From: a virus
Length of the DNA: 64,000 nt
IMG/VR virus record: IMGVR_UViG_3300042453_004886
Location: 1 to 64,000 of that record
Strand: one strand, 5' to 3'
In this document: positions 18,266 through 28,468 of the stretch, piece after piece
Numbering within the stretch: the stretch's first letter is position 1
Layout: each line of letters begins with the position of its first letter
Notes under the pieces: model-generated
What the model was told of the DNA's origin: nothing
Seen by the model: the letters and a program-made list of their open reading frames with translations, nothing else
The model's database searches: none
Translations under genes and position numbers: made by a program

Positions 18266-18873
18266 TGCTTTTGCAAGGAACTATTCTTTACTACAATCCA
18301 TCTACCCGCGTTGGTTCTGTAGAAACAATATCTGGTATATTTCAAGCAACAAACTATTTATTTCCAGCTGATCAAGCTTACCCCGCCGCAGTAAATTCTT
18401 TTCTAGTTCCTTCTGAGTACAATACTGTTTTTCCGTCCCATACTTTTAATGAAACTGACAAAGTTGTTTTGTACAAGGACTCTTTTGAGAACTTGATCAT
18501 ACTTGGTAGAATTAATTCCGGTAATTCTACTACAACGACTCAGCCTTTTGTTCTGTATCAACCTGGAAAGTTTACAGTTACTAAATTATTAACAGTTCAA
18601 GCAAATGTTCCTGTTGAGTTAAAAGATTTTGCAAATAGAGCTCTCGTAAGAAAAGTAAAAATAACAAAGGTAGCTGGCGGAGAGTTTACCTTCAAAATAT
18701 TGAATACTAATGAAGAACTTCAGGCTTCTTGGGGAGATGGAGAAGTTATTTTAGAAAATGTTTTGGAAGACTACGCAGGGTTCTTCTTTGAAGCAACAAA
18801 CTTTACCTGTGTTTTATTGTTTAATACTTCTGGAACTTACGAACTAGAAATTGTTGGAGAACGCTTTTCTTAA
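18265..18873 (+). CDS. Hypothetical beta-rich (virion?) protein
   Basis: 202-aa ORF coupled to the upstream gene (TGATG). Confidence 0.6.
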   Translation: MLLQGTILYYNPSTRVGSVETISGIFQATNYLFPADQAYPAAVNSFLVPSEYNTVFPSHTFNETDKVVLYKDSFENLIILGRINSGNSTTTTQPFVLYQPGKFTVTKLLTVQANVPVELKDFANRALVRKVKITKVAGGEFTFKILNTNEELQASWGDGEVILENVLEDYAGFFFEATNFTCVLLFNTSGTYELEIVGERFS

Positions 18874-21800
18874 CAATTGAAAGTATCGTTAAAATCTCTA
18901 TCTGAACCCACCTGATAAGTGTCGGCGTGGTTCATCAACGCTTTATCCATTTTTTCAAATCCATGCGTAGACGATAAGAATACCCCATTTGGAGTTCTTG
19001 CAAAAAGCCTTTCTCCAAATTGGTTATGTTTTGATTGTTTCATGTGAGGCTCTGCATGTAGTTCGTGTGGATCTATTTTTTCTGGTGTAGACGCAGCAAC
19101 TTGCATAACGTAGCCTTTTGTTTTTTTTGTTTCAGATTTAGCAGACTCTCTTGCAGCTTTTTCAACGGCTGCAAGTTTTACAGCGTGCTGAACCTTTGAA
19201 GCAAGAGTTCCTTTTACCTCTCTTGCAGCAGTTCTAACTGTAGGTGCCGGGTTTGCTGAAACAGTATCCGTTGCTTGGCCCATGGGTTGGTTTGGATTAA
19301 CACCAAGTCCTTCCATATTGATTGGATTTGGTGGAGCGTCATTTATTGATTCTCTATTTGATCTAGGACGTATATAGCCTGAGTTTGGCCTTGCTTGCTG
19401 AATTACCTGTTCTCTTTCTGACCTTGTTGGATCTGACGTAACGATAGAAGCTTTTGTTTGTGTAAAAGCTCTTCCAAATCTGGATGGATCGATGACGCTA
19501 ACTAAGAAACTCCTTGGAGGCATTCCTACGCCAGATCTCGGATCATACGCAGAGCTGTAACTAAAAATTTTATTTATGTAGAGTCCCTGATCAGTCAAGT
19601 TCATAACAACTTGCGTCATTAAATCAGCTCTTCTCAGCATTTCAGCCTGAACACCTGCATTTTGAACCAAGTTAGGCGGCCTAAACATGTGACTTCTATA
19701 ATCACCACGCATCCATGTTGGGCCAAGTGCATCGGAGCCGTCTTTGTTTGAAGTTACCTGTTTTGCAGAAGGTAAGTAACCAAATATACTTGAGTGTAAA
19801 GTATACCTGTTATATGCATCTGAGTCTTGGAACGGTAAAAGATTTTGAACAGGCGCCATGTAAGCAACGCCGTAGTCTAATTCGTTACCTACCCAAAATA
19901 CAGATTTGTCAACGAAAGCTCCGTGACCTTCCTGATCAAGGGAAGGGGATCCTCCACGTAATCTATAACTCAGGTAAGGAAGGTTTGTTCCTGGATTTTT
20001 ATCTTCTCTATAGATAATATCAATGGCTTCTCTTATTGGGGATTCGTTTAGTGCCCAATTCTGGAGAACTTCCCACCCTTCTAACCTGTTTCTCATTTTT
20101 TTAGAAGTTAGGGTTTTGCTCATATTTTCAAACATGTCGTGGAATCTCATCTCGTTTTTAAACCAAGAATTGAGAATCCCACCCATGTAGTTGTCTTTAG
20201 CTATTTCCCTTCCTTCTCTGATCTTGTCAGTTCTTGAAGCTCTTTCCGCTGCTCTTTCAAACAGCAATCCCGTTCCAATTGCACCGGCTATACCTACTCC
20301 AAGTACACCAAGCCCAACAGCAGTTTCAGCGATCAAACCAACCGGTCCTCCGATTGGAGCAAGGAGTGCTATGCCTCTAAAAAAGTTTACAATTGTTCCA
20401 AAGTTTAAAATGATTTGTGAAGCTACTTCACCAAACATGCCGCCGATAAATCTTTGTCTTTCCTTGTAGAGTTCTGTGTAAATATAGTTTTTTTCTTGCA
20501 TGTTTAAATCTTCGTTTTCTAGCTGACTTTTCAAGTAAGACATTCTTCTTATAGGGTCTGCAACAAGACTGTTTACAAACCAAGCTTGAAATCCAAAAGT
20601 AAAAGTTCCTTTTACAAAAGCACCTACGTTTGGAGTAAGAAGTCTTGTAAGTCCAGTTTCTATGAATGCGTTTCTTCTAAATAAACTTAATCTTTTTTCT
20701 ATGTTTTCTTCAAAAGCATCTTTACCCATTTTTTCTTTGAGTATTTCAAGTATCTTCTTTTCCCTTGTTGATCCATCTTCCAAGATTGTGTTAGAAGACA
20801 TTGCTCGCATAAAATCTGCATCATCTAGCAAATCTGTTAAATCTTTAGGAGCTACTTGAGATACAACCTGGGAAATAACAGATCTCTCGAAGTCGAGTCT
20901 AAGTTTTTTTACCCATCCAGGTTTTTTAAGTTTATTAGATTCTGCGTTGTTTTTACCAACGCCTCCGGCCATTTCATACTCGGCTATCCGGAGGGCATCC
21001 CTGGTGTTTCTACCGGTAAATCCAAGTTTTTCTTTTAAGAATCTTCTGAATCTATCACTCTCTAAAGGACCTACTTCCTCAATTACTTTTTCATCTTCTA
21101 AAGCATTTATAAGATCACTCTGTAGATCTTTTACAGCATGACTTGAATCAAAAAGTACACCAGTTATTGTTCTTGCTTTACCTGCATTGTCCGCATGAAT
21201 TTCTTGCATGAGATCGATAGACTCTTCCATGAGTCTTTCTAATTTTGTTTTATCTCCAGCCGCGTCCTCAATCATGTGCTTCATCATGTTATCAAGTTCA
21301 GTTTTTGCTTTATTTATTGAACTTACACGTGCCTGTAATTCTGTAGCTTTGGCAGTTAGTGGACCATGAGCCATGTTATCTAGAGTATTTTCTAATTTGT
21401 GAAGCATATCTCTAGCTTGAACCATGTCAATAAATTTTATTCCTTTTGCTTCTGTAGATCGCTTTAGAACATCTTCAACAGCAGAAATTCTATTAAGAGT
21501 TGCATTTAAATCTTTAAGCTCACCACTTATAAAATCAGCTTCATCCCACATGAACAAACCAAAGTTTGTTGCGCCGGGTGGTTTCATTCCTCGCCCAGAA
21601 GCTGATTCTAGCGTGGTTGATGCCCCATTAGGAGGAGCAGCCCTGTATCTTTCACCTTTAACGTAAATTAGTTCTCTTTTACCGGAGCCGGTACTAAAAA
21701 CATATTTTGAACTTCCGCCTGCTCCTTGAGTGTGATTTATTTTTATAAGTCTTGAAACACTTGTTCTTAAAGAACGAGTCCTGAGCTGCTTAAGTCTTAA

Positions 21801-24800
21801 AGCTTCTTTTAGGCCTCCCCCGATTTTAATTTTTTCCATGAAAGCTACACCAGCACCAGCGATTGCTCCCCCTACAATGGATGCCTCACTGGTAAACATA
21901 CCAATTGTGCCCAAGGCTCCAAATAAGCCTGTTGTGACTAAAGCGGCGGCTACTTGCGGGCTTTGCCAGAAATTATAAGAAGAGCTCAAAGGATTGTAGT
22001 ATTTTCTGTTGAAGTAATCTTGAGCAACCTTTTGATCGTAAACACCTTGGTTGTATTGTATTTCTTCATCTCCGGAAGCTAGTTCTTCCATCGTATTTTT
22101 ACTATCTTCAGAAAACACATCCGATACATAGTAGTTCATAACTTTTGATAAGTTATCTTCTTCTCTTGTATTAGAGTCTCTAAATATTCTTATAGAATGT
22201 CTTGATGCAAAAGTTTGCATGTGCTGGTGACTGACAAGACCAGGTATAAAAACTAGATCCATGGGATCTACTCTTTTAACGTGGGAGAACATAGTAGATC
22301 TTCTTAAGAGCTCAAGTCTAACACTCCAAGTTGTGGCATCTGCCATGATGTCGTCCCTGTACATCTTGGAAGACCGTATAGGAGATACGCGCATGGACTG
22401 CCTTAGTCCAAACGTGTCGTACACCATGTGTTGCATATATTTGGATTCTTGAGCTCGTCTTTTTTCGTAACCAGTTCTAAAAATAGGCTGCTCTGCGTAG
22501 CCAGCGTTCAAAAACATCATCGGGCTTAACTGAACGAACCCACCGGCCCACGCGTAGGTATCTTTATCTATTTTCTTTTGAACGACCCCGTAAGGGCCCG
22601 CAGCCAAGTAAGGGTGAGTTTCCAAGCTATTATAGAAACTTCCATTGAACACACTTAAAATACCGGTGGCCCAAGTTGAAACTGTGTTTGTCAAGCTTGG
22701 AGTTGCAAAAGCTCCTTCTTTTAGTTTGTAATACTGTTTACCAGGATCAAACTTCAAATCATCCATTTTGAAGCCAGCTATTCCATAAAGCAGTTCACCT
22801 GCCATAGCTGAACCGACGATTTGAAGATTTCTAAAATTACCTTGATAGTCAAAAAGATGAGCGCCCATTCTAGCTATTGCAATCAGGGACCGAATCAAAT
22901 CAGGGCCAGTATCGTACGAAAAGTGATCTTCTACATATTTATGAAGAGTGCTTTGTTTTCTTGCATAAGCATCTGCCCGATTAAGCAAAGCTCCGCTAGC
23001 AGCCCATCTTGTTGCAGCGTTTGCTAGCCTAAAAGCTAAGCTTGATTCTAATTCTTTTCTGTTATAGACACTGTTATTAGCATCAAGAGTAAGTCCAATA
23101 GTTCCAGCAAGCATCATAACAGAACCAACAAGAGCTGCAGTTCTTATAAATTTACTTGCAAATGTACTGTGATTATAGGAATCTGAAAAAACATTTCTAA
23201 AATTCAATACTGGATTAGTCAACCTTAAGTAAGCCTTGTATAGCCTTTTCTTTTCTCCGGCATCAAGATTACTTACTCCAAACTTATTTTCAAAGTCCAT
23301 TTGATTTTTTACACCACCGCTTACGCTTTCAAGGTGATGCTTTATTTCGTTACGTGTGTATTCAACACTGAATCCTGAAAATCTTGTTCCTTCTACGCCG
23401 CTTATAAGTAAATCACGAACCTTTGCTAACTTATCTACATCTTTAACTGTAAAAGTATCAGCTTTAAGGGCGTCTATAAATACGTTTTTAGCTTTGCTGT
23501 ATCCATACCCAACATTTGTTTTAGGTACAGTAAAACCATAATTAATTAAAGTTGCGCCAGCGTTAACCATGGCAATTGCTGCATGAATTGGAAGCGTAAC
23601 AGGTATAGACATAATTTTATTAATTGCTTCCAAGTGGCTCATCGGTTTTGAAAACCGTATTCTTGCTCCACCTTGGCTTTTTGTATGGTTATAACTAACC
23701 ATGTAAGCATGGCTAGATTTAGATACAACATTCTTTAAAGCGTCTGATACAGCAGTTCTAAAAGGTGCCGAGGCGTACGCTTTTGCTCTCGCTTTTTCAG
23801 CGACGCTGTGATCAAGCAAGTGAGCCGTTAAAGACAGTGCGCTGTTAAAGCTTAAATGGAATGCGTGTAAAAGCGTTACAGCACCTAATGCATTTGCAAA
23901 GTTTGTTCCAGGTTTGTACGTAAACACCCAAGGGGACTTTGAGTATCCTAGTTGCTTAGCTTCTTTGTCATCCAAAGCTTTATACATTTGAAAAGGAAGT
24001 GTAGACGACACACCCATTGCCAAGAATACTGGACCTTGCAAGCTGAAACCAAATTCTTGAACTTCTTTAGGTGCAAAGTTGTAACCAAAACCTCCACGGT
24101 CGCCTGCACCGGAGTGTTGCGACATACCCCAAGTGAGCGTTCCAACAATAGGCGTCGCCGTGATCTGAACAGCCCAACTTTTCCAGAGGTCAGCTTTAAA
24201 CGTGTCTTTTTCGTAAAGACTCTGTCCCCCAGAAGAAGCCATCAAATAGTAGTTTGCAAGTTTTTGATTTCCCATCATTGCAGCTGTTTGAGCTAGCTCA
24301 AGCTCTTTACCCTGATACATGATAGCAGTTGAAAGAATGTTTTTTGGCTTGGTTTGTTTAGTAAGAGATTCTACAGCGCTTCTCCAAAGCTCTTTCATGG
24401 GGTTTACAGTTAGAGCTCTTATTAAATTGTATGCTGCGTCAATGTACCTATTTCCGGTCAAGTAAACATTTGAGTTTGTAGTTCTTGCTAGCTGAACAGG
24501 ATGCATTCCAACTCTTTCAGCAGCATTTCTTAATATTTCGTTTCCCCTATCAATTGTTCTCGCGTCCACTCCTCCAAGATTTTGCCCTAAGTAGCCTGTT
24601 AATTGATCTACTGCAACTGCAGCAAACATAGTAACTGCAAAAGCTGTACCCCACGTTGAAGCTTTAAACCCAAAGAGGTGTGGATTTTTTCTTATTACTG
24701 CGTTATCAACTTTGTTAGTAACGTGAGACCACACGCTTTTTACACGTTTTAAAACAGTATCTCTTTTACTTTTTGTGTATAGGGCAGCGATTAAGTAGGT

Positions 24801-26873
24801 GCTTCCTCTGTATATTGCTTGCAACCCTTGGTTATAAAACCTAAAAGGGCTGAATAGAATATTTGATTCCGTTGTCTTGTTTGTAAGCACCATTGAACGC
24901 TTTGTGACGTACTCAGTACTCTTTGAGGGATCTTTGATGTCGACCACGACACGGTCTACAAGACGCTGTAAACTTCCCTCTGACCCTGACATCCCTGTGA
25001 GGGTATCAATAGCGCGTAGAATAGGGCTCATGTAGTATCCAAAGCTTTCAGCAGCCATGGATCTCATGATGTAAGAAAGTCCGCCAAGCTTTTCAGGTAG
25101 GGCTTTAGTCAGAGCATGCGAAGCTCCTTTAGCTATTTTATTATTTTCTGGAATTGATTTATTAATTACTTCAGATACAAAACCAAGAAGATTTTTAGTA
25201 TGTCCAAAAGCAAGTGAAAACCCACCCGTAACAAGCTGGAATCCCATCATGTTACCGATCATGTTGTTATTAAAGTCAATAAATGACCTTGTTATATCAG
25301 CAAACGTAGTACTGTGTTCTTTGACTGGTTTTAATCTGTAACCGTAGGTAAATCTTAATTCTTGTTCTTCTCGTGATAGATCAAAACCACTTACTTCATC
25401 ATTTAATCTTTGAACAAGATTAATAATTGAGGTAGATATAAATCCTCTACCCCCAAGCTGACCCCAAGATTCTCCCCAAGTTCTGCTGGTTACCCAGCTG
25501 TTTTGTATGTCAGAAAGAACTTTGTACTCACTTAAAAAGGTATCTTTATCTGTTCCTTTGATGTACGAATTTAAACCATCAAATATAGATTTTTCATTGT
25601 AAAGTCTTTGATAATCCGTGTAAGCCGAGGTAAGGATACCTTTTTCATTTTTAACATTGCCGTTAGATATATCTTCAAAAAAAGTTCTATTCCTTGCATC
25701 CAGTTGCGAAGGTATTAATACATCTTGACCTGACTCTTGCATATAAGAAGTGTGAACGTAGTTTATAAAACCAGTTTCAAACTGACCTTTTCTAAACTTT
25801 TCCACTCTTATAGCGTTTGTGCCTTCTTCAAAATCTTTTTTAAGTTCTTTCGTTACAATATCAGATTGAAATAACCAACCTGATTCAGTTCCTGCCATGT
25901 TGGTATAAGCACTTGTTGAACCTCTGATGCTTCCCTCAAAACCAATATTGCCTTTAAACATGTCGTTTTGGTGTTCTTGGTATTTTTTTTCAGGCTTACC
26001 GGTGCGCTTGTTAATGACTGTCTCAGTTGATTTTGGAGTATGTATATAAAGATAACCAGGGTAATCTGGGTTTGCAGCTCTATTTTGAACTCTTGAAATA
26101 AAGTCATTTTGAGCTTTTTCTTGACCTTCAGACCCCGCGTTCATACCACTTGGCTTGATGTGTACATCGCCACCAGAAGCCAGCTGTCTATAAATAAGTT
26201 TTTCTATTCTGTCTGAAGTGTAGGTTGCTGACTCCATGTAAAGAGGTTCTGGTTTTTTATTAGATTTGTCATTATTAAAAAAAGCGTATTCTAGCCTTTT
26301 CCTACCGGAGTCTTCAGTTGGTGAAAAGACAAGCAAGTCTCGCTGAGATCTTGGTGCTTTCCCGTGCCGGATATCTGTAAAAAATGCATCATTTTGCTTT
26401 GCAATATCTGCGTGGTCTTTTACAACAATATATTTATTTTTAACCCTATCGTTGACGTTGGTAGGCGTCATGTCCGAAGTAAAGATAGCATCAAGCCTTG
26501 AGTTGGTTCCTTTTAGCTTTGCTCGGGCTCCTTTAAAGTGAGCCATTTTGGCATAGGGTTCCGCAGGTAACTCTTGAACACCTTTAGCTATAGGATGTCC
26601 AGTTGTTTTATGGTTTGAACCATAAACAATCATCTTATTAGTAAGAGCAGTATCTAGTATCGACTCGTGGTATGTAACCTTAGATACGTAACCATGCTGA
26701 GCGGTAAATGTAGTTATTTCGCCTTGTTCTGTTTGTTCAGCGTATTGTTTAAAACTACTTTGAGTAAGATTTCCATGCAGGTATAAGTTTTTATCAATGT
26801 TCGTAATAGGAGCTCGAACATTGTATACGCCTAGAAGGCCTTGTTCATATCCTTTATCCTGGAAACTATCCAT
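18870..26873 (-). CDS. Giant tape-measure-like protein with N-terminal PLD-like domain
   Basis: 2667-aa ORF; several Gly/Ala-rich hydrophobic segments (e.g. GGPVGLIAETAVGLGVLGVGIAGAIG) and helical charged tracts; HxK and degenerate HxN motifs near the N-terminus. Confidence 0.6.
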   Translation of the reverse strand: MDSFQDKGYEQGLLGVYNVRAPITNIDKNLYLHGNLTQSSFKQYAEQTEQGEITTFTAQHGYVSKVTYHESILDTALTNKMIVYGSNHKTTGHPIAKGVQELPAEPYAKMAHFKGARAKLKGTNSRLDAIFTSDMTPTNVNDRVKNKYIVVKDHADIAKQNDAFFTDIRHGKAPRSQRDLLVFSPTEDSGRKRLEYAFFNNDKSNKKPEPLYMESATYTSDRIEKLIYRQLASGGDVHIKPSGMNAGSEGQEKAQNDFISRVQNRAANPDYPGYLYIHTPKSTETVINKRTGKPEKKYQEHQNDMFKGNIGFEGSIRGSTSAYTNMAGTESGWLFQSDIVTKELKKDFEEGTNAIRVEKFRKGQFETGFINYVHTSYMQESGQDVLIPSQLDARNRTFFEDISNGNVKNEKGILTSAYTDYQRLYNEKSIFDGLNSYIKGTDKDTFLSEYKVLSDIQNSWVTSRTWGESWGQLGGRGFISTSIINLVQRLNDEVSGFDLSREEQELRFTYGYRLKPVKEHSTTFADITRSFIDFNNNMIGNMMGFQLVTGGFSLAFGHTKNLLGFVSEVINKSIPENNKIAKGASHALTKALPEKLGGLSYIMRSMAAESFGYYMSPILRAIDTLTGMSGSEGSLQRLVDRVVVDIKDPSKSTEYVTKRSMVLTNKTTESNILFSPFRFYNQGLQAIYRGSTYLIAALYTKSKRDTVLKRVKSVWSHVTNKVDNAVIRKNPHLFGFKASTWGTAFAVTMFAAVAVDQLTGYLGQNLGGVDARTIDRGNEILRNAAERVGMHPVQLARTTNSNVYLTGNRYIDAAYNLIRALTVNPMKELWRSAVESLTKQTKPKNILSTAIMYQGKELELAQTAAMMGNQKLANYYLMASSGGQSLYEKDTFKADLWKSWAVQITATPIVGTLTWGMSQHSGAGDRGGFGYNFAPKEVQEFGFSLQGPVFLAMGVSSTLPFQMYKALDDKEAKQLGYSKSPWVFTYKPGTNFANALGAVTLLHAFHLSFNSALSLTAHLLDHSVAEKARAKAYASAPFRTAVSDALKNVVSKSSHAYMVSYNHTKSQGGARIRFSKPMSHLEAINKIMSIPVTLPIHAAIAMVNAGATLINYGFTVPKTNVGYGYSKAKNVFIDALKADTFTVKDVDKLAKVRDLLISGVEGTRFSGFSVEYTRNEIKHHLESVSGGVKNQMDFENKFGVSNLDAGEKKRLYKAYLRLTNPVLNFRNVFSDSYNHSTFASKFIRTAALVGSVMMLAGTIGLTLDANNSVYNRKELESSLAFRLANAATRWAASGALLNRADAYARKQSTLHKYVEDHFSYDTGPDLIRSLIAIARMGAHLFDYQGNFRNLQIVGSAMAGELLYGIAGFKMDDLKFDPGKQYYKLKEGAFATPSLTNTVSTWATGILSVFNGSFYNSLETHPYLAAGPYGVVQKKIDKDTYAWAGGFVQLSPMMFLNAGYAEQPIFRTGYEKRRAQESKYMQHMVYDTFGLRQSMRVSPIRSSKMYRDDIMADATTWSVRLELLRRSTMFSHVKRVDPMDLVFIPGLVSHQHMQTFASRHSIRIFRDSNTREEDNLSKVMNYYVSDVFSEDSKNTMEELASGDEEIQYNQGVYDQKVAQDYFNRKYYNPLSSSYNFWQSPQVAAALVTTGLFGALGTIGMFTSEASIVGGAIAGAGVAFMEKIKIGGGLKEALRLKQLRTRSLRTSVSRLIKINHTQGAGGSSKYVFSTGSGKRELIYVKGERYRAAPPNGASTTLESASGRGMKPPGATNFGLFMWDEADFISGELKDLNATLNRISAVEDVLKRSTEAKGIKFIDMVQARDMLHKLENTLDNMAHGPLTAKATELQARVSSINKAKTELDNMMKHMIEDAAGDKTKLERLMEESIDLMQEIHADNAGKARTITGVLFDSSHAVKDLQSDLINALEDEKVIEEVGPLESDRFRRFLKEKLGFTGRNTRDALRIAEYEMAGGVGKNNAESNKLKKPGWVKKLRLDFERSVISQVVSQVAPKDLTDLLDDADFMRAMSSNTILEDGSTREKKILEILKEKMGKDAFEENIEKRLSLFRRNAFIETGLTRLLTPNVGAFVKGTFTFGFQAWFVNSLVADPIRRMSYLKSQLENEDLNMQEKNYIYTELYKERQRFIGGMFGEVASQIILNFGTIVNFFRGIALLAPIGGPVGLIAETAVGLGVLGVGIAGAIGTGLLFERAAERASRTDKIREGREIAKDNYMGGILNSWFKNEMRFHDMFENMSKTLTSKKMRNRLEGWEVLQNWALNESPIREAIDIIYREDKNPGTNLPYLSYRLRGGSPSLDQEGHGAFVDKSVFWVGNELDYGVAYMAPVQNLLPFQDSDAYNRYTLHSSIFGYLPSAKQVTSNKDGSDALGPTWMRGDYRSHMFRPPNLVQNAGVQAEMLRRADLMTQVVMNLTDQGLYINKIFSYSSAYDPRSGVGMPPRSFLVSVIDPSRFGRAFTQTKASIVTSDPTRSEREQVIQQARPNSGYIRPRSNRESINDAPPNPINMEGLGVNPNQPMGQATDTVSANPAPTVRTAAREVKGTLASKVQHAVKLAAVEKAARESAKSETKKTKGYVMQVAASTPEKIDPHELHAEPHMKQSKHNQFGERLFARTPNGVFLSSTHGFEKMDKALMNHADTYQVGSDRDFNDTFNC

Positions 26874-26942
26874 TAAGTAAATCTCTCAGTAATTATTTAA
26901 TACAATTCTAGCAAAATATATTATAATACGCACAAAAATAGG

Positions 26943-26964
26943 GAGATGAGTTTCCCCACCTCCC
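26943..26964 (-). terminator. Intrinsic terminator of the methyltransferase gene (repeat copy 1)
   Basis: Minus strand GGGAGGTGGG-GAAA-CTCATCTC followed by a T-rich tract. Confidence 0.8.
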
Positions 26965-26991
26965 TCAAATCTACTTAAATAAAAATATGAG

Positions 26992-27576
26992 TTAGGAAAG
27001 ATTTCCCCACTGGCTGGCCATTGCGTCAGCAATTCCTTGGTAAGTCTTGCTTCTGATTTTCCACCTATCAGCAGAAGGTGTTAGTTTATTCTGTCCGCTT
27101 GCAGTAGTGTTATCCCAAGTATTTCCTATTTTCTCAACAAGATCTGTAGGAATTAGTAGGGGCAAATTCTTGAGCCAAAGACAAGTCTTTTTGCTTTCTC
27201 GGTGACCAAACATCCATGGTTGAATGATTTGATCCGGCTTTCTGATGTGACTGCTGATGATGCTCACCGGGTTTTCAAGCGCGATTCGTTCAATCGGTGC
27301 ATCAAGTAATAAACGAACAAATTCAAGAGCTTCTTGCTGCACCCCACTGGCTCGCTTTTCAGCGAAGTGACGAGCGCCAGATACGGCCAAGTGAGTGCAG
27401 GGAGGATGAGCGATCATCAAATCCCATCCGTCATTAATGATGTCTAATACATTTCCTTTGTAGTGCGGCCCTGGTAGATCTGTATCAAGAAGGTCACACG
27501 ATAAAGCATCGTGGCCAAGTTTTATAAAAGCGTCTCTAACAGTACCGCTATATTCGCAAGCAACAAGAACTTTCAT
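26992..27576 (-). CDS. Short phage-type C5 DNA cytosine methyltransferase
   Basis: VLVACEYSG (motif I variant), HPPC (catalytic motif IV), ENPV (motif VI), KKTCLW and RSKTYQGIADAMA. Confidence 0.85.
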   Translation of the reverse strand: MKVLVACEYSGTVRDAFIKLGHDALSCDLLDTDLPGPHYKGNVLDIINDGWDLMIAHPPCTHLAVSGARHFAEKRASGVQQEALEFVRLLLDAPIERIALENPVSIISSHIRKPDQIIQPWMFGHRESKKTCLWLKNLPLLIPTDLVEKIGNTWDNTTASGQNKLTPSADRWKIRSKTYQGIADAMASQWGNLS

Positions 27577-27608
27577 TGTTATTCCAAAAAAGTTGGTTAT
27601 TTATAATT

Positions 27609-27617
27609 ATTGTATCA
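27609..27617 (-). promoter_or_regulatory. Extended -10 promoter candidate for the methyltransferase
   Basis: TGaTACAAT on the minus strand about 33 nt upstream of the ATG, in an AT-rich gap. Confidence 0.4.
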
Positions 27618-27650
27618 AAATATTTCATACTTTATAAAAAATAAAATAGA

Positions 27651-27672
27651 GAGGTGAGTTTCCCCACCTCCC
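27651..27672 (-). terminator. Intrinsic terminator (repeat copy 2; 21/22 identical to 26943-26964)
   Basis: Minus strand GAGGTGGG-GAAA-CTCACCTC followed by TCTATTTTATTTTTT. Confidence 0.8.
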
Positions 27673-27737
27673 CACTAACACTTGGGGGACTAGCCCAAGC
27701 CGCTGGCAACCTCCAGCTTAGATAGGATCACCCCCTC

Positions 27738-27779
27738 TACCAAACCAACCCAACCTTGAAATAACGAGTTGAAACCATG
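27738..27779 (-). CDS. Putative 13-aa peptide MVSTRYFKVGLVW
   Basis: AAAGGAGG RBS 9 nt before ATG; TAG stop; inside a 340-bp otherwise non-coding gap. Confidence 0.45.
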
Positions 27780-27918
27780 ACAGGTATCCTCCTTTCAAAG
27801 TAAGTTTTGTTTAGAGAGGCCCAGACACTAGGCAACCGCTCTATGCGTAGTGTATCATCAAAGGTGCCTGTTAAAGTTCAAATCTAGGGCCTAACAAAAA
27901 ATATATTTTGGGGGTCAA

Positions 27919-28170
27919 ATGTTGCCTTCTTTTAGCGGATTCATTCCAGTTAAAGACTTAAACACCGTATTTTCTGACTCAAAGGAATGGATCACGATCT
28001 ACACCCAAGAAACAGCCTTGGAGCTAGAGAACGCACCCTTTATTCCGGTATCTTTTCAGATCATTCCCGAAGAACCCATTGAAACCAAGTTAACCGTTAA
28101 CCAGGATAATGGAATTGTAGAGAAAATACAGATCAAGAGAAAATCAATCTCTTTGATAAGACCTTCTTAG
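27919..28170 (+). CDS. Hypothetical protein
   Basis: 83-aa ORF at the start of the plus-strand block. Confidence 0.55.
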   Translation: MLPSFSGFIPVKDLNTVFSDSKEWITIYTQETALELENAPFIPVSFQIIPEEPIETKLTVNQDNGIVEKIQIKRKSISLIRPS

Positions 28171-28171
28171 A

Positions 28172-28468
28172 ATGCTTAAACCTGGTTTTGAATTTGCAAA
28201 AGCTTACATTGAAAAAATATGTCCCAGTGAAGAAGATCAAATTTATATAGATGTTCTTTCCATAGAAGATGAAGATCTCTATGTAGAAAATGTTATATTA
28301 GATTTCTACACAAATGAAGAAGATATAGAAGAGTCCATATTAAGATTACTTTTAAGAAGTCCCTACTACGTAGAATGGTATACCGATTCCGATGGTAACG
28401 ATTTTCGTATCGTTATCATCGATCATCGTCAAATAGGTTCTTTAGTCAAATCTCTTCGTTGGTTGTAA
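28172..28468 (+). CDS. Acidic hypothetical protein
   Basis: 98-aa ORF adjacent to the previous gene. Confidence 0.65.
   Translation: MLKPGFEFAKAYIEKICPSEEDQIYIDVLSIEDEDLYVENVILDFYTNEEDIEESILRLLLRSPYYVEWYTDSDGNDFRIVIIDHRQIGSLVKSLRWL

Follow-up and report, generated by a model that had tools for sequence, protein, structure and literature searches.

We analysed a stretch of phage DNA of 64,000 nucleotides (nt; hereafter the window), the first 64 kb of the IMG/VR record IMGVR_UViG_3300042453_004886, a 194,626-bp phage genome that was judged complete and comes from lake and freshwater metagenomes of several studies. Within a spacer of 342 bp (27577-27918), between a DNA methyltransferase (MTase) gene and an operon for class II ribonucleotide reductase (RNR), lies a short unit in which a mini-open reading frame (mini-ORF) of 13 codons leads straight into a start-less complement of the 3′ tail of 16S rRNA. 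A sequence-only reading of the same DNA had put this unit forward as a candidate for an undescribed RNA-level system. The coordinates of the unit refer to the minus strand of the window unless another strand is given, and its parts are the following.

27818..27891, minus strand: hairpin-prone 5′ segment GGCCC...GGGCC in the minimum-free-energy (MFE) fold, of uncertain membership in the unit
27788..27795, minus strand: Shine-Dalgarno (SD) sequence AAAGGAGG of the mini-ORF, with a 9-nt spacer to the ATG and among the strongest SDs of the window
27737..27778, minus strand: 13-codon mini-ORF MVSTRYFKVGLVW and TAG (ATG at 27778-27776, TAG at 27739-27737)
27725..27736, minus strand: motif core AGGGGGTGATCC (RNA AGGGGGUGAUCC), the start-less complement of the 16S rRNA 3′ tail
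27718..27723, minus strand: ATCTAA, one base 3′ of the core, placing AUC 7 nt past GGGGG and UAA behind it
27684..27735, minus strand: composite hairpin with outer stem GGGGG:CCCCC and inner stem CUAUCUAAGCUG:CGGCUUGGG-UAG, -24 kcal/mol
27635..27676, minus strand: intrinsic terminator (27676-27645) with a 14-bp stem (arms GGAGGUG and UCACCUCU), a GAAA-type loop and a T-run

The start-less complement turned out to be real and non-random. All 12 positions of the core pair with the 16S tail GGAUCACCUCCU, 11 of them as Watson-Crick pairs and one as a G·U pair, and at 4-13 nt past the motif the window has no AUG, GUG or UUG start codon. The core is laid out as A (27736), GGGGG (27735-27731) and TGATCC (27730-25), followed by T (27724). 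The ORF for 13 amino acids (aa) stands behind its SD and directly before the complement with the sequence that had been reported, and the in-frame TAG and TGA are likewise present: TAG AGG GGG TGA forms one frame, with the TGA inside the core. The mini-ORF is probably translated; its 3′ half is base-paired with its own leader in the MFE fold. The full pattern occurs once in the window and in none of 100 shuffles. We scanned both strands of the whole genome with a 16-nt sliding window against the 14-nt 16S tail. The predicted duplex energy of the motif (-24.7 kcal/mol) ranked first in the 194,626 bp, the runner-up reaching -21.5, and genuine ribosome-binding sites (RBSs) with an AUG peaked at -20.2 (GGAGGUGAUUAC-AUG / GAAAGGAGGUGAUUAC-AUG, at 108656 and 113174). 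In the strongest true RBSs the AUG is located 7 nt past GGAGG, a place that is held by AUC past the GGGGG of the motif. Only a single exact copy of the motif was found in the whole genome of this phage. A scan for tRNA and tmRNA was negative. As a separate observation, three genes outside the window (108656, 113174 and 105837, plus strand) begin behind very strong leaders that are almost the same, GAAAGGAGGTGAT(T)A and then ATG, which may be a repeated leader or RBS cassette.

We defined the motif as a core, (A)GG(A/G)GGUGAUCC, complementary to the 16S 3′ tail and followed by N1-4 and AUCUA(A), near a stop codon. The GGGGG form, GGGGGTGATCC-N1-4-ATCTAA, was present in at least 119 IMG/VR stretches, and the GGAGG form of GG(A/G)GGTGATCC-N1-4-ATCTAA in 82 further ones; about half of the distinct GGAGG-form sequences are chance matches in coding sequence (Gly-Gly-Asp-Pro), and the remainder are stop-adjacent and intergenic. 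The reversed pattern gave 1 match in the same collection. A core with two positions changed (UGAGA), as would suit a host with an altered anti-SD, gave 9 distinct sequences, none of them with the layout of stop codon plus hairpin. These were coding or antisense chance matches (6 inside ORFs of 229-563 codons, and L460, L463 and L474 crossed by no long ORF on the printed strand), and they serve as a chance baseline. The GGGGG pattern had 43 matches in 596 Gb of bacterial and archaeal genomes, about one third of which are type I-E CRISPR repeats. All six phage records examined carry one motif copy per genome.

An exact 16-mer search retrieved 48 IMG/VR contigs, in most of which the motif closes a small gene and a hairpin comes next, and a gapped pattern search found it also behind genes for the portal protein, the major head protein and the RNR large subunit, and behind several small ORFs. 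Across these unrelated genes the stop codon of the upstream gene falls between -12 and +5 nt from the motif, and the motif is always sense to that gene. A same-strand ORF with its stop near the core was observed at 96 of the 107 loci that are not coding through the motif, a set that holds some bacterial and CRISPR matches and was examined with a permissive ORF test. The preceding ORFs range from 13 to 738 aa and are mutually unrelated. Both forms of the core fit CCUCC, GGAGG via A-U and GGGGG via G·U, so that A and G are both tolerated at the position facing U1537; two bases before the G-run stands a purine, usually A or G, which could pair with U1541. A hairpin 3′ of the motif was predicted at 53% of loci, compared with 19% in the upstream control sequence, and starts at a median of 8 nt past GAUCC. 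Metagenome scans for the closest relatives of the window version returned 0 and then 6, all from the marine post-portal lineage.

An unbiased sample comes from marine phages in which the motif ends the gene for a conserved basic helical protein of 52-57 aa (alignment A1; for example L094:10781-10936, minus strand). This protein has about 530 relatives in IMG/VR and no Pfam, PHROG or PDB match. Its gene has its own AAGGAG SD and is usually located upstream of a phrog_385 'MPTY...' gene and PhoH, the following gene varying between contigs. Because these loci were fetched via the protein family and not via DNA, the sample was not selected on the motif. We found AGGGGGTGATCC invariant in 47 of 47 distinct loci, despite proteins that are down to about 50% identical, and it is followed by 1-4 variable nt, by AUCUA in 40 of the 47 and then by a hairpin of variable, co-varying sequence. 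The stop of the gene is a TGA within the motif in some lineages and a TAA directly before it in others. Since the frame thus differs among lineages, the conservation is at the nucleotide level and independent of the reading frame. In one member AUUUA stands in place of AUCUA, matched by an exactly complementary segment behind the hairpin. Pairing between AUCUA and the next SD was considered as the reason for the conservation of the hexamer and rejected, as it is frequent in the 52-aa-gene loci and not elsewhere. We also rejected the idea that the mini-ORF of the window is a decayed 52-aa gene: the genome has no homologue of that gene, a comparison of the mini-ORF with the profile aligned just 'IERL' with a probability of 0.5%, and a model of the 5′ end of the 52-aa gene had no match at the window site. 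A relationship of the 52-aa protein to bS21 was discarded as well, having no Pfam or PDB support.

Two further groups of loci bear on constraint at the RNA level. In a high-GC family of four sequences (L346, L350, L385 and L398), the motif and AUCUAA are predicted to be unpaired in a loop closed by an 11-bp stem, with a hairpin directly behind, and compensatory double changes occur in 8 of the 30 predicted pairs. The window and the marine post-portal group (L219, L264 and L291) share ten bases beyond the core, AUCUAAGCUG, and have in common an outer GGGGGU:ACCCCC stem and an inner AAGCUG:CAGCUU stem, with one compensatory pair, AAUCUG:CAGAUU. A three-part switch, in which the following hairpin would contain a mimic of the 16S tail, was rejected as a general feature, the duplex energies having a mean z of -0.36 relative to shuffles over 74 loci. 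As an observation on the high-GC family itself, its members (L346:496-660, L350:12591-12755 on the minus strand, L385:1893-2057 and L398:4-168) carry the GGAGG form in a multi-stem RNA. A further single strand, UCCUUGUUUUAC, is conserved in this element, which stands 100-250 nt ahead of the next gene and has the appearance of an independent structured non-coding RNA.

Rfam 15 had no match in the window at the gathering threshold, and the best match by E-value in 27500-28000 reached 19 bits against a threshold of 48 bits and covered the terminator alone. Over 19 related loci no Rfam family was found at the motif, the sole gathering-level match being an unrelated tRNA in L086. Word searches of the literature found no description of the motif, and the 11-mer GGGGGTGATCC occurred in no phage paper; among the listed papers that contain it, the microbial ones deal with Lactobacillus genomes or CRISPR and the others are unrelated. 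BLAST of the 342-bp spacer against cultured phages gave no match, and a 38-nt query gave a single weak coding match. Two cultured phages carry the GGAGG form, namely Vibrio phage P23 (L415, MK097141.1 1208-1225) and Vibrio phage F89 g1 (L416, OZ196428.1 25171-25188); in each, TAGGAGGTGATCCTATCTAC and a hairpin stand directly behind a small ORF. In both phages the site is at the end of the lysis gene cluster and is unannotated or just the end of a hypothetical protein. The window itself has the core, AUCUA(A) without a start codon, an adjacent stop codon, a single copy and a hairpin. On the sequence comparisons, the unit is therefore a non-random member of a widespread, uncatalogued, phage-specific RNA motif. 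The proposal of an undescribed RNA-level system has thus gained conserved homologues, and no Rfam family accounts for them.

The setting of the unit in the genome is given by the following features.

26992-27576, minus strand: DNA MTase (phrog_757), the left neighbour of the spacer
18870-26873, minus strand: giant gene of 2667 aa, further left of the MTase
Right of the spacer, plus strand: 83-aa ORF and then class II RNR, a divergent operon
27829-27858, plus strand: promoter-like site TAGGCA, 18 nt, TATCAT, which would drive the 83-aa/RNR operon and points away from the unit
27642..27643, strand-independent: module boundary, the junction of a strain contig behind the terminator of the unit

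In a contig of a related lake strain (run X2), 27643-28197 is matched and the next 30 bases are identical to 26906-26935 of the window. This strain is without 26936-27642, a 707-bp cassette comprising the MTase and its upstream or promoter region, and the copy of the unit's terminator directly joins the region upstream of the giant gene. In the window the cassette is flanked by two near-identical terminators (repeats 26935-26964 and 27643-27672). The copy at 26935-26964, 93% identical over 30 bp, is the only repeat of any part of the unit elsewhere in the genome. The other lake strains are nearly identical over the element, with 3 substitutions that all fall within or beside the terminator, and hence give no covariation signal. 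We found no element-like sequence upstream of the MTase relatives in other phages (80 relatives), and the neighbouring 83-aa ORF has no relatives in IMG/VR. The strain comparison marks the MTase as a recent insert. The idea that the unit attenuates the MTase is refuted, because the related strain has the element without the MTase and the 80 MTase relatives are without the element. The description of the unit as self-contained fits the same comparison, since the module edge falls exactly behind the terminator.

The predicted folding of the unit agrees in part with what had been proposed from the sequence. The 271-nt stretch as a whole is more stably folded than its shuffles (z = -3.3). Of 'two hairpins and a terminator', the terminator stands, and the two separate hairpins are replaced by the one composite hairpin at 27735-27684, whose outer stem is predicted to hide the G-run of the motif. 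The hairpin of the 5′ part is also seen in the MFE fold; it may be part of the leader of the unit, but this region overlaps the promoter-like site of the opposite strand.

We propose that the unit is a cis-acting dock for the small ribosomal subunit at the end of a translated ORF, a reading to which we give an even chance of being right. The small subunit is the simplest candidate for the ligand, because maximal complementarity to the 16S tail is the sole feature common to all lineages. The tight link to a stop codon suggests that ribosomes completing the upstream ORF unfold the RNA locally, after which a subunit is kept there. In this proposal an ORF, here 13 codons behind a strong SD, leads straight into the 12-14-nt complement of the 16S tail, and ribosomes finishing the ORF would open the masking stem GGGGG:CCCCC. 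A small subunit, either just terminated or free, could then pair its anti-SD tail with the motif (core part GGGGGUGAUCC) and would be parked without productive initiation, with the P site over the near-cognate AUC, the A site over a stop codon and the hairpin at the mRNA entrance. The SD helix would lie on the exit side; the P-site codon would be AUU in one relative, and a stop in the A site would be usual. For most members, which have a gene on the same transcript, parking could tether the ribosome for re-initiation and unmask the next SD, and at the 52-aa-gene loci it is plausible that translational coupling works by such tethering and unmasking. The unit of the window, with its own terminator, would most likely be a small RNA that is occupied and stabilised by a ribosome, or a roadblock or sink in front of the giant virion gene. 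What we observed is the anatomy, the family with its phage specificity and the independence of the MTase; the binding of the 30S subunit and its consequence we infer.

Several observations weigh against this dock. The fold prediction has the motif's G-run base-paired in the free RNA, and the hairpin alone is no stabler than shuffles (z = -0.6). The promoter scan found no sigma-70-like promoter for the unit. A ribosome on the adjacent stop codon must move about 15 nt downstream for its own tail to reach the motif, and the window unit has no following gene before the terminator, so that a coupling function is not directly applicable to it. The hairpin behind the motif is enriched, yet not universal. 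In the 52-aa-gene family GGGGG is invariant though GGAGG would pair better with the tail, a sign of a possible second constraint. The hexamer does not form a start-stop throughout, reading AUCUAU, AUCUGG or AUCUAC at some loci; AUC initiates translation very poorly, and AUCUA(A) in the 52-aa-gene loci can pair across the hairpin with the SD of the next gene, UUAGGA.

An alternative that we regard as unlikely makes the likeness to an SD secondary and takes the element as a structured regulatory RNA or a protein-binding site, either a switch between masked and open states of the G-run and C-run or a pair of sites, GGRGGUGAUCC and AUCUAA, recognised by a protein from either the phage or its host (a nuclease, a boxA/boxB-style antiterminator or a translational repressor would be examples). 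The invariance of GGGGG across the 52-aa-gene family speaks for it, as do the GGGGGU:ACCCCC stem common to the window and the post-portal group, the covarying helices that frame the motif in the L346 family and the second conserved single strand UCCUUGUUUUAC found there. The layout, in which a variable hairpin comes after a conserved single strand and one such element per genome stands behind a gene, resembles the nut sites of lambdoid phages. Yet the only stretch common to the unrelated lineages is the exact 12-14-nt complement of the 16S tail, in which the A/G alternative keeps the pairing, and downstream complementarity to the motif does not exceed that of the composition-matched shuffles at the 74 loci (mean z again -0.36). 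Moreover, no candidate binding protein is co-conserved, the neighbouring genes differing among lineages.

More improbable is a leader-peptide attenuator in which translation of the mini-ORF would set the terminator at 27676-27645 and hence read-through to the next gene on the minus strand, ancestrally the giant gene and now the MTase. The order of a short ORF with a strong SD, alternative pairings, a terminator and a gene on the same strand is what such a device would have, and the C-run at 27691-27687 has two possible partners, the motif and the GGGG of the terminator's 5′ arm. But the putative antiterminator would have about 5 bp against the 14-bp stem of the terminator, the MTase is a recent insert, and the -10-like hexamers TATAAT and TAGAAT were noticed by eye, outside the promoter scan, between the terminator copy and the ATG of the giant gene. 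Among the motif loci just 5 of 39 strong hairpins have a U-rich tail, and attenuation leaves the complementarity to the 16S tail unexplained.

A signal at the level of DNA, such as a recombination or module-junction site, a homing target, a polymerase pause or a packaging signal, is in our view highly improbable. It would draw on the strain-variable cassette flanked by repeated terminators that adjoins the unit, on the varying gene after motif and hairpin among the 52-aa-family contigs, on the single copy per genome and on the ATCT, which we take to resemble the core of T7 class II pause signals. Against these points, the motif is always sense to the upstream gene and the flanking helices covary as RNA, and the variable junction lies behind the terminator, 80 nt from the motif, where the repeats are terminators and not the motif. 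A T7-like RNA polymerase was not found in the genome, which counts weakly, since the control genomes gave no match either.

Scarcely credible, finally, are a functional 13-aa peptide (a type I toxin or micro-protein) with the motif as a mere 3′ UTR and a functionless chance arrangement: the strong SD at the correct spacing before the ATG and the moderate hydrophobicity of the peptide are outweighed by its 13 residues, too few for a membrane-spanning toxin, by the lack of a peptide homologue in any motif-bearing locus, by an occurrence of the motif far beyond chance (reversed-pattern control and shuffles) and by the near-invariance of the element in the lake strains, whose 3 substitutions are all in or beside the terminator. 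The suggestion of a type I toxin-antitoxin locus fails on the same grounds, the peptide being too short for a membrane helix and not conserved. An antisense RNA for such a locus finds no convergent promoter-like site either, the sole plus-strand candidate (27829-27858) pointing away.

If the holding of ribosomes by the motif is true, it would be a new viral route to steer the host translation machinery after termination. A broader proposal, which we advance tentatively, extends this to the phages of many hosts: each genome would have a single RNA element devoted to docking ribosomes, comparable in bacteria to the calicivirus TURBS, that hands ribosomes to a chosen downstream gene or parks them on a small RNA, for instance the stand-alone unit of the window, and may sense the number of free or altered small subunits. 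The two cultured carriers, Vibrio phages P23 and F89 g1, make the question accessible at the bench, and annotators can recognise the element by the signature GGRGGUGAUCC-N1-4-AUCUAA behind a stop codon.

Pairing between mRNA and the 16S tail is known for translation initiation and from special cases, namely frameshift stimulators, 5′ stabilisers and rpsU autoregulation. The present case is different: a conserved, phage-specific, start-less and maximal SD of which each genome has one copy, placed where a gene ends, in phages of lakes, oceans and other habitats. To this the window adds a stand-alone version with a mini-ORF. The STAB-SD of Bacillus thuringiensis cryIIIA and the polypurine 5′ stabiliser of phage SP82 are start-less SDs that reportedly hold the 30S subunit and protect the downstream RNA. 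They are alike in having no usable start codon, but comprise 8-9 nt at or near the 5′ end of the transcript, whereas the motif has 12-14 nt directly behind the stop of an ORF, an additional AUCUAA and hairpin, and a distribution over many phage lineages. Recoding SDs are exemplified by the +1 site of prfB (AGGGGG-UAU-CUU-UGA) and the -1 site of dnaX, in which an SD is combined with a slippery site and a hairpin. The start-less AGGGGG-type SD within the message and the geometry of SD, spacer, site and hairpin are similar, but the motif has neither a slippery heptamer nor a CUU-UGA shift site, and its upstream frame varies among relatives. The recoding signal suggested for the window is not borne out: read-through of the TAG would add just Arg-Gly before the TGA, relatives enter the motif in different frames, and no slippery heptamer is present.

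Close to the upstream stop codon of calicivirus mRNA lies TURBS, an element with complementarity to the rRNA of the small subunit, which by the proposed mechanism tethers the post-termination subunit for translation of the downstream ORF. TURBS pairs with helix 26 of the eukaryotic 18S rRNA and lies upstream of a stop-restart overlap, whereas the motif pairs with the bacterial 16S tail and overlaps or follows the stop, the next start being 20-250 nt away or, in the window, absent. A further viral termination-reinitiation signal near the stop of an upstream ORF is that of influenza B M1/BM2 (PMC3035654).

Among bacterial genes, the extended SD of rpsU (bS21) in Bacteroidia and Flavobacterium forms up to 13 bp with the 16S tail and yields unusually stable, precisely placed ribosome complexes even without initiator tRNA (PMC9976891). 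The near-whole pairing of the 16S tail is shared with the motif, and it acts there as a regulatory element and not as a plain RBS (PMC9976891). The differences are that rpsU is a host gene with a proper start codon and a protein product, in hosts whose anti-SD is normally hidden, whereas the motif is start-less, follows a stop codon and occurs in a phage whose genes use ordinary SDs. Because of these ordinary SDs, the host of the phage is probably not SD-blind.

The Start-Stop sites of E. coli, consisting of an SD, AUG and a stop codon, bind ribosomes and make no product (10.1101/520783). As in the motif, an SD stands at start distance from a codon that is immediately trailed by a stop; the motif differs in having AUC (AUU in one relative) and not AUG, in its maximal SD and in several relatives without the stop codon. 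The same phage has a canonical element of this kind, located 16 nt before the ATG of the next gene, whose SD is GGGGG.

36860-36840, minus strand: start-stop element AGGAG-N8-ATG-TAA, before the lysis genes

Type I-E CRISPR repeats ending in CGGGGGTGATCC contain the identical 11-mer GGGGGTGATCC, but they form arrays and have a complementary CCCCGC arm just upstream, whereas the phage motif is single-copy and no C-rich arm of the CRISPR type was found within 30 nt upstream of it in the window or the phage family. The likeness appears to be coincidental. Repeats with this ending (L420, L423, L427, L430, L433, L434, L439-L441, L450 and others) were seen in Firmicutes, Actinomycetes and a metagenome-assembled genome (MAG) of Methanogranum.

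Taken together, the motif is a member of none of the STAB-SD, rpsU, Start-Stop and TURBS classes, and these are the systems that its proposed working resembles most.

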